From: Desulfovibrionaceae bacterium
GTDB lineage: Bacteria > Desulfobacterota > Desulfovibrionia > Desulfovibrionales > Desulfovibrionaceae
Direction: 5' to 3'
Assembly (NCBI GenBank): GCA_017613475.1
Contig: JAGADT010000157.1
Coordinates: forward strand, 1 to 31,908
Length of the DNA stretch: 31,908 nucleotides
Part shown: positions 1,804 to 1,875 of the stretch, one piece after another
Layout: every line of letters begins with the position of its first letter
How positions within the stretch are numbered: the stretch's first letter is position 1
Notes under the pieces: model-generated
What the model was told of the DNA's origin: nothing
The model's database searches: none
Seen by the model: the letters and a program-made list of their open reading frames with translations, nothing else
Translations under genes and position numbers: made by a program

Positions 1804-1875
1804 ATGCGGAGATGTATTTTCACTCTGCTGATCGCAGCGGTCCTGGTTCTGTTGTTCGCCATTAAGGCTAACTAA
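1804..1875 (+). CDS. 23-aa hydrophobic peptide MRRCIFTLLIAAVLVLLFAIKAN, putative type I toxin
   Basis: GGAGGG SD at 1791-1796; one uninterrupted hydrophobic segment flanked by basic residues; promoter upstream, hairpins downstream. Below the ORF-track size cutoff. Confidence 0.75.
   Translation: MRRCIFTLLIAAVLVLLFAIKAN

Follow-up and report, generated by a model that had tools for sequence, protein, structure and literature searches.

In a 31,908-nt stretch of Desulfovibrionaceae DNA (the window), an unannotated ORF of 23 codons is preceded by two genes for Sel1-repeat proteins and followed by a hicAB pair. This ORF raises the question of whether so short a reading frame is a gene and, if so, what its product does. 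A first-pass annotation had proposed an independent gene, with a promoter and a terminator of its own, for a hydrophobic peptide with a single helix, which would be either an Ibs-like membrane-depolarizing toxin or a small membrane regulator. Our comparison of homologous sequences suggests that the region from 1703 to 2037 is probably one copy of an uncatalogued type I toxin–antitoxin-like family of Desulfovibrionaceae. What leads us to this reading is the combination of a one-helix peptide, an mRNA that appears to lock itself, a predicted cis-antisense gene, occurrence in arrays, a patchy distribution, carriage on a prophage, and remnants that have kept only the antisense unit, which together make up the anatomy of a type I system.

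The source genome is a metagenome-assembled genome of 1.3 Mb with a G+C content of 59%. The ORF (1804–1875 on the plus strand, including the stop) starts at an ATG at 1804 and ends at a TAA at 1873–1875, and its 23 codons, read directly from the sequence, encode MRRCIFTLLIAAVLVLLFAIKAN; its assignment is based on the sequence itself, the family alignment and the coding signature described below. A Shine–Dalgarno (SD) sequence, GGGAGGG, is located at 1790–1796, 7 nt before the ATG, and is kept in all homologs. The N-terminus of the peptide is basic; a single transmembrane helix of about 17 residues follows, with an aliphatic core of 16–17 residues, and then a short polar tail. As judged from its sequence, it has the properties of a type I toxin, that is, a small (<≈60 aa), hydrophobic, one-helix product of a coding ORF. 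All of the features in the first-pass annotation, namely the ORF, the SD sequence, the promoter-like site and the terminator, are present in the sequence.

Database searches returned little. An exact look-up of 10 family peptides in ≈15 billion predicted proteins found none of them. Pfam and NCBIfam searches with the window peptide and 17 family members assigned no family and gave only sub-threshold, signal-peptide-like matches; a sub-threshold match to LPAM_1 occurred in 8 of the 17 members, and the peptide resembles a bare signal peptide. Searches of both strands against Rfam, at the gathering thresholds and at relaxed E-values, produced nothing relevant.

Homologs were found through the flanking DNA. 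A blastn comparison to relatives initially matched only the DNA 3′ of the ORF, and a homologous 23-codon ORF, MKRFIMALLVVLAVVLLLASDAR, was then read in front of the match. Further copies were collected by pattern scans of species genomes, 400 genomes of the family, metagenomes and viral contigs, and with a covariance model of the 3′ element (R1). (One candidate copy from the pattern scans, L022, turned out to be an unrelated terminator hairpin and was rejected.) The total came to more than 40 homologs, which derive from Desulfovibrionaceae genomes, from metagenomes of the gut and rumen, and from a single prophage contig. Among the copies with a start codon, the homologous ORFs span at least six genera and 16 metagenome contigs. 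Their length is 22–23 residues in every case except for one degenerate copy of 19 residues, which has a 12-nt deletion; peptides of 22–23 aa are encoded by each of the 16 metagenome copies for which the upstream DNA is long enough, and likewise by every unit of the arrays that has a start codon. The peptides fall into three subfamilies, represented by MRKLVFALLVAVALVLLLASDAR (A), MRKLVFAAIIALILVMLLASDAR (A2) and MRRYVVLVLLVLLALLLRGDSRP (B).

The pattern of substitution in these ORFs is that of coding sequence. The mean pairwise differences between 12 distinct 23-codon ORFs were 0.35, 0.23 and 0.48 at codon positions 1, 2 and 3, respectively. The pooled pN/pS for the same ORFs, whose pairs share ancestry and are not phylogenetically independent, was 0.56, a value that indicates moderate constraint only, compared to 0.81 and 1.48 in the other two frames, which nearly always contain stops. 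Paralogs within the same genome differed by four synonymous changes and one non-synonymous change. Frameshifts, stops and a loss of codon-level conservation among the homologs, which the first-pass annotation had named as evidence against its reading, were not what this comparison of substitution rates revealed: the copies with a start codon, save the degenerate one, hold 22–23 codons, and their changes are biased towards the third position. The proposal of a stand-alone gene for a one-helix peptide is thus borne out by the coding-type substitution and by the conserved length.

A chance intergenic ORF flanked by fortuitous promoter-like and terminator-like sites has to be considered for any frame this short, since short hydrophobic ORFs are common in DNA of 59% G+C, and the promoter at 1703–1731 falls below the threshold of a simple promoter scan, in which it was absent. 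However, the more than 40 homologs share the length and frame of the ORF, its SD sequence and its coding-type substitution, and the RNA helices described below covary. We regard this explanation as extremely improbable, and the comparative data refute it. Because homologous ORFs of 22–23 codons are found in the copies with a start codon, and because these change in the manner of coding sequence, the ORF is, on comparative grounds, a conserved coding gene and not a chance occurrence.

The units around the ORF are more conserved as RNA than the peptide is. The predicted peptide mRNA of ≈270 nt (1738–2009, plus strand), with its ends placed by the promoter and the terminator, aligns with 22 homologs, giving an alignment (A3) of 23 distinct full-length units. 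In the RNAalifold consensus of this alignment, 97.1% of the cells were paired, compared to 33–45% in slid controls, with 19 compensatory pairs. No measure of the fold was reached by any of 500 shuffles, although the sequences are related, so that shuffle controls overstate the significance. The covariation statistics likewise derive from related sequences and are not probabilities.

The most prominent element of the fold is a long-distance helix between the extreme 5′ end of the mRNA (1739–1750, a tac-like arm) and the 3′ UTR (1929–1940, an fbi-like arm). Both arms were identified by repeat search, RNAalifold, covariation and haplotypes. The helix has 12 pairs, five of which are changed on both sides, and is 96.7% paired. 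Five compensatory haplotypes (CTG/CAG, TTG/CAA, CTA/TAG, TCA/TGA and TTA/TAA) were observed among all copies. RNAalifold found the same helix independently in the first 11 sequences, and it was present in 10 of the 11 single-sequence minimum-energy folds, which were read by eye.

The 5′ arm has an alternative partner in the start-codon region. When the 5′ part of the mRNA was folded alone, the 5′ bases paired with the start-codon region and the adjacent CCCUCU with the SD sequence in 11 of 11 units. In the window, the corresponding anti-SD sequence is CCCTCTT (1749–1755). The anti-SD/SD helix is 95.7% paired, with two compensatory pairs, and the helix between the 5′ arm and the AUG region is 97.4% paired; for the alternative 5′ structure as a whole, the value is 96.4%, compared to 42–55% when slid. 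In subfamily B, the SD and anti-SD sequences have changed jointly, to GGGGG and CCCCC. The mRNA therefore has a structured form with a sequestered ribosome-binding site, as expected for a type I toxin mRNA, with both SD and AUG paired in all 11 folds and with support from covariation. The predicted energy for opening the ribosome-binding site was 8–17 kcal/mol. Masking the 3′ UTR to mimic antisense binding raised the mean from 11.3 to 13.1 kcal/mol, and it was high either way; since this shift is small, we did not count it as support for the direction of a switch. Taken together, the modeled folds suggest an mRNA that locks itself by means of two competing pairings of its 5′ end.

Covariation was also found in three other elements: a hairpin that comprises the last codons together with the stop (1849–1878; helices 5 and 6, with six pairs changed on both sides), a hairpin with a 13-bp G+C-rich stem directly 3′ of the stop (hairpin 1, 1880–1912; helix 7, 99.7% paired), and the terminator. 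The last-codon hairpin is preserved in the window despite a different sequence (FAIKAN compared to LASDAR), and the conservation of the C-terminal codons is explained in part by this RNA hairpin. A second hairpin in the 3′ UTR (hairpin 2, 1942–1960; helix 8) is 98.2% paired and varies on one side only. Since G–U pairs in the covarying helices correspond to A–C mismatches on the other strand, it is the plus-strand RNA that folds.

This mRNA would be made from a σ70-type promoter, TTGCCT-17-TATGGT, at 1703–1731 on the plus strand. Its sequence matches the consensus at 8 of 12 positions, and the site is supported in addition by a repeat block and by its conserved position. The promoter named in the first-pass annotation is thus present, and the equivalent position is filled in most of the relatives for which upstream DNA was examined: the pattern TTGCxx-17-TAxxxx precedes the 5′ element in 8 of 12 ORF copies with upstream DNA from relatives, and in three more by eye, at a distance of 6–10 nt from the conserved 5′ element. 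At the other end, the terminator that had been placed at 1969–2009 was recovered by the terminator scan as a 15-bp hairpin followed by a T-run, at about 1966–2009. Its stem (helix 9) has six compensatory pairs and many G–U pairs, whose minus-strand counterparts would be mismatched.

A second promoter, TTGCCA-17-TATATA, faces the first one from beyond the terminator (2009–2037, minus strand). It is conserved, and its –10 box overlaps the T-run of the plus-strand terminator. The motif TTGCCA-17-TAnnnN was found on the minus strand just past the terminator in all ORF-bearing copies of the first set that had sequence there. The spacing is 16–17 nt (16 in one copy), the spacers are divergent, and one –10 box ending in G was read by eye. 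In the arrays, the promoter is present in 16 of 16 ORF-bearing copies; it is also present in 4 of 7 copies that lack the ORF. In subfamily B and in one ORF-less copy (L013), hairpin 1 is followed on the minus strand by a tract of U4–U7, forming a canonical terminator. From this conserved promoter and the hairpin and U-tract of the relatives, we predict an antisense RNA, the putative antitoxin, of ≈135 nt, running from ≈2002 to ≈1866 on the minus strand, with hairpin 1 as its likely terminator hairpin. Hairpin 1 of the window is followed by an interrupted tract (AACUGUUAGUUAG), and in the subfamily to which the window copy belongs this tract is constrained by the stop and the last codons, so that the 3′ endpoint of the antisense RNA is uncertain. 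The predicted RNA has full complementarity to the whole 3′ UTR, with the 3′ arm of the long-distance helix in it, to the stop codon and to the last few codons, and it contains a near copy of the 5′ arm of the mRNA.

The terminator scan also detected a strong minus-strand terminator at 1626–1659, upstream of the peptide promoter. This hairpin is conserved upstream of a related module on another contig of the same genome (C89, see below), and a non-systematic look at upstream sequences in other genomes revealed no counterpart. A read-through antisense transcript of ≈380 nt ending at 1626–1659 is possible, in this genome only.

Seven copies of the 3′ element lack the ORF (L013, 2881–3016; L016, 1493–1628; L066, 578–716; L068, 473–610; L069, 323–460; L071; and L072). 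In L013, the upstream region is unrelated and AT-rich, and the minus-strand unit is kept. The sequences of the ORF-less copies that retain the minus-strand promoter suggest that these may be orphan antisense genes; those without it have the look of remnants in decay. Two of the tandem arrays begin with a truncated, ORF-less copy.

The ORF-less copies bear on the possibility that the module functions through RNA, be it the structured plus-strand transcript, the small RNA of the minus strand or both, in which case the ORF would act only as a regulatory leader or would be tolerated as a by-product. Conservation is higher in the 3′ element than in the ORF, the element exists at several loci without any ORF, and the last codons serve also as an RNA hairpin, all of which would fit such an arrangement. 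Nevertheless, a length of 22–23 codons has been held across three subfamilies with widely different DNA, the start codon and SD sequence are invariant, and hydrophobicity has been kept under position-3-biased change, while the other frames are closed. Furthermore, an elaborate lock on the SD sequence would be sensible only if translation matters. An RNA-only function is consequently improbable in our estimation, and we continue to favor a translated, type I toxin-like peptide.

The distribution of the family was determined by direct computation, as were the coding signature, both helices and both promoters, and it is patchy, with multiple copies in some genomes. Searched with the covariance model, 8 of 43 sampled Desulfovibrionaceae genomes contained the 3′ element, compared to none of 107 genomes from other families of the order. 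(Two weak matches in genus g59, with E-values of ≈3e-4, may be false.) The element was absent from all four genomes of the same genus, which are 79–97% complete. Three genomes have tandem arrays of six, five and four units, respectively, and one mouse-gut genome (G019) has about 10 copies, many of them at contig ends. One copy is located on a 74-kb prophage contig from IMG/VR. A blastn search of plasmid and phage collections gave no matches.

Three metagenome copies (L031, L040 and L042) lie among tail-fiber C-terminal cassettes with an adjoining tyrosine recombinase. Here, the 23-aa module is situated amid several short ORFs whose matches to tail collar fiber proteins (phrog_523) are confined to the C-terminal part of these proteins, and the recombinase next to these cassettes has 384 aa; the arrangement looks like an invertible, shufflon-like tail-fiber region of a prophage. 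Pfam found nothing among the neighbors of these three copies, and the matches came from PHROGs. No partner gene is conserved beside the module.

This distribution bears on a third explanation, in which the peptide is a non-toxic small protein of the inner membrane, either a regulator or an accessory subunit, that is tuned by a cis-antisense RNA and by mRNA folding. Many small membrane proteins of 20–30 aa are regulators, and the coding signature and the conserved single-helix peptide would suit such a role equally well. However, housekeeping small proteins are usually single-copy and syntenic, whereas this module occurs in arrays of four to six and at up to about 10 copies per genome, is absent from genomes of the same genus, rides on prophage DNA and has no conserved partner gene; in addition, its ORF-less remnants retain the antisense unit. 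We therefore consider a non-toxic membrane protein rather unlikely, though less so than a purely RNA-based function, and retain the type I-like reading.

The surroundings of the module in the window contain several other repeated elements. The two Sel1-repeat proteins (1–741 and 923–1429) adjoin, have internal repeats with a period of 108 nt, and are followed by near-identical terminators (766–805 and 1453–1492). The hicA/hicB type II toxin–antitoxin pair (2216–2811, minus strand), which was confirmed by Pfam, has a small-peptide module on each side. It is also flanked by a bidirectional terminator hairpin in two copies (2120–2160 and 2852–2892) that are 85% identical.

The promoter block of the 23-aa module, 36–45 nt in length, recurs twice more in the genome, at 2967–3011 in the window and on contig C89, where it belongs to two further modules for small hydrophobic peptides (2967–3290 in the window and the C89 module). 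The C89 copy (L003, 1495–1661) encodes a peptide of 27 aa, MEQFLLDVLAGVLAAVIAAIVIRRLGL, a member of a family of MKHFLRDVLAAFVAAVLAALVIRMLHI-like peptides that also occurs in tandem arrays, with units ≈350 nt apart, in the relative G371 (L048–L053). This 27-aa peptide (L003, 1578–1658) had a sub-threshold match to NCBIfam NF047374, a Clostridioides difficile type I toxin (E-value 1.4e-4; 22 bits, compared to a cut-off of 60). The copy in the window has an ATG at 3044 and encodes 32 aa, rich in Trp and Cys, with a family-like start that then goes out of frame. From its sequence, this copy looks frameshifted, and is either a pseudogene or the result of an assembly error in a homopolymer run. The ≈120 nt upstream of the 23-aa and C89 promoters (1614–1733 in the window and ≈1420–1540 on C89) are 87% identical and include the minus-strand terminator hairpin at 1626–1659. 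The upstream copy on C89 follows a tRNA gene.

How might such a module work? We infer antisense transcription, the direction of the switch, and toxicity from the arrangement of the elements, and we propose the following mechanism because the two helices compete with each other and because the antisense RNA bears a near copy of the 5′ arm. The σ70-type promoter would produce the ≈270-nt mRNA for the 23-residue peptide. The 5′ end of this mRNA would pair either with the 3′ UTR (1739–1750 with 1929–1940) or, together with the adjacent anti-SD sequence, with the start codon and the SD sequence. The convergent promoter past the terminator would produce the ≈135-nt antisense RNA, which would act as the antitoxin. 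By pairing along the 3′ UTR, this RNA would expose the mRNA to double-strand-specific cleavage and would at the same time displace the 5′ end from the 3′ arm, allowing it to close the ribosome-binding site. Loss of the antisense RNA would permit synthesis of the peptide, which would then enter the inner membrane.

A more far-reaching interpretation, which we put forward only tentatively and think somewhat doubtful, is that this represents a new design, in which the 5′ end toggles between the ribosome-binding site and the 3′ arm, the antitoxin RNA competes for the 3′ arm, and translation is shut off from a distal site ≈130 nt past the ORF. Such a module would join hok-type closure to SR4-type control from the 3′ side, and it would be the first 3′-overlapping type I system in a Gram-negative lineage.

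Among the publications that could be searched, which exclude the supplementary tables of Fozo et al. 2010, none was found to describe a type I system in Desulfovibrio. A family present at 4–12 copies per genome in sulfate-reducing bacteria of the gut and rumen, and in prophages, would bring the type I class to the Desulfovibrionaceae. It would also offer unusually rich natural covariation for work on mRNA folding switches, and it would account for many “empty” intergenic repeats in these genomes, and probably for contig breaks as well. If the 3′-acting antisense RNA does work via the 5′–3′ helix, two mechanisms that have so far been studied apart would become linked. The practical value will be modest until toxicity is demonstrated.

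Finally, we compared the family to known type I systems. The Ibs, Hok, Fst, Ldr and TisB profiles had no match to the window peptide at E-values up to 10, nor to the 17 family members at E-values up to 1. The Ibs/Sib pairs resemble the window family in that both have a very short, almost purely aliphatic one-helix peptide with a basic N-terminus, are repeated in the genome, and are under antisense control (which in the present case is predicted). However, Ibs peptides have 18–19 aa rather than the 22–23 aa of the window family, and Sib spans the entire ibs ORF (PMC8594479), whereas the predicted antisense RNA of the window family, with its promoter ≈135 nt downstream of the stop, covers the 3′ UTR, the stop and the last codons only and spares most of the ORF. 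The Rfam searches gave no match to Sib. The proposed identity as an Ibs-type toxin must therefore be dropped, while the more general reading as a type I toxin is strengthened by the locked mRNA, the antisense promoter, the tandem multi-copy arrays and the ORF-less remnants.

The par system of Enterococcus faecalis (Fst, RNA I/RNA II) likewise combines a single-helix peptide with convergent transcription that meets at the terminator. The two par RNAs have a bidirectional terminator in common, and their interaction takes place at repeats in the 5′ part of the mRNA (PMC8594479). In the window family, by contrast, the predicted antisense RNA begins at the terminator and extends across the 3′ UTR, and there was no match to Fst.

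The predicted layout is similar to that of bsrG/SR4 and txpA/RatA in Bacillus subtilis, in which the mRNA for a small hydrophobic peptide is overlapped at its 3′ end by a convergent antisense RNA, and which are also carried by prophages. When SR4 binds the 3′ end of the bsrG mRNA, decay is set off and a helix at the SD sequence becomes tighter. This twofold action, decay and SD closure, is the one suggested here for the window family. The toxins of these systems differ in having 38–59 aa, and there is no sequence similarity and no Pfam, NCBIfam or Rfam match in the window family. To our knowledge, closure of the 5′ end onto the 3′ UTR is not a feature of bsrG- or txpA-type mRNAs. The families with a 3′-side antisense RNA in T1TAdb are all Gram-positive (PMC8594479), whereas the window family is Gram-negative.

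Such closure is instead found in hok/Sok and in aapA1/IsoA1 of Helicobacter pylori, where the extreme 5′ end of the mRNA pairs near the 3′ end (tac–fbi closure) or, alternatively, with a sequence close to the ribosome-binding site, so that a folding switch arises; the resemblance is one of mechanism only. Like the window family, hok/Sok is multi-copy and is found on mobile elements. However, Hok has ≈50 aa and a leader ORF, mok, whereas no second overlapping ORF is conserved in the window family, and the HOK_GEF profile matched neither the window peptide nor the 17 members. Furthermore, Sok and IsoA act at the 5′ side, while the conserved antisense promoter of the window family is at the 3′ side. 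By sequence comparison, then, the window family belongs to none of Ibs/Sib, Hok/Sok, bsrG/SR4, txpA/RatA or par: homology fails for all five, and for Ibs/Sib and Hok/Sok the position of the predicted antisense RNA differs as well. Instead, it appears to combine a hok-like 5′–3′ closure with a 3′-overlapping antisense layout that has so far been catalogued only in Gram-positive bacteria.
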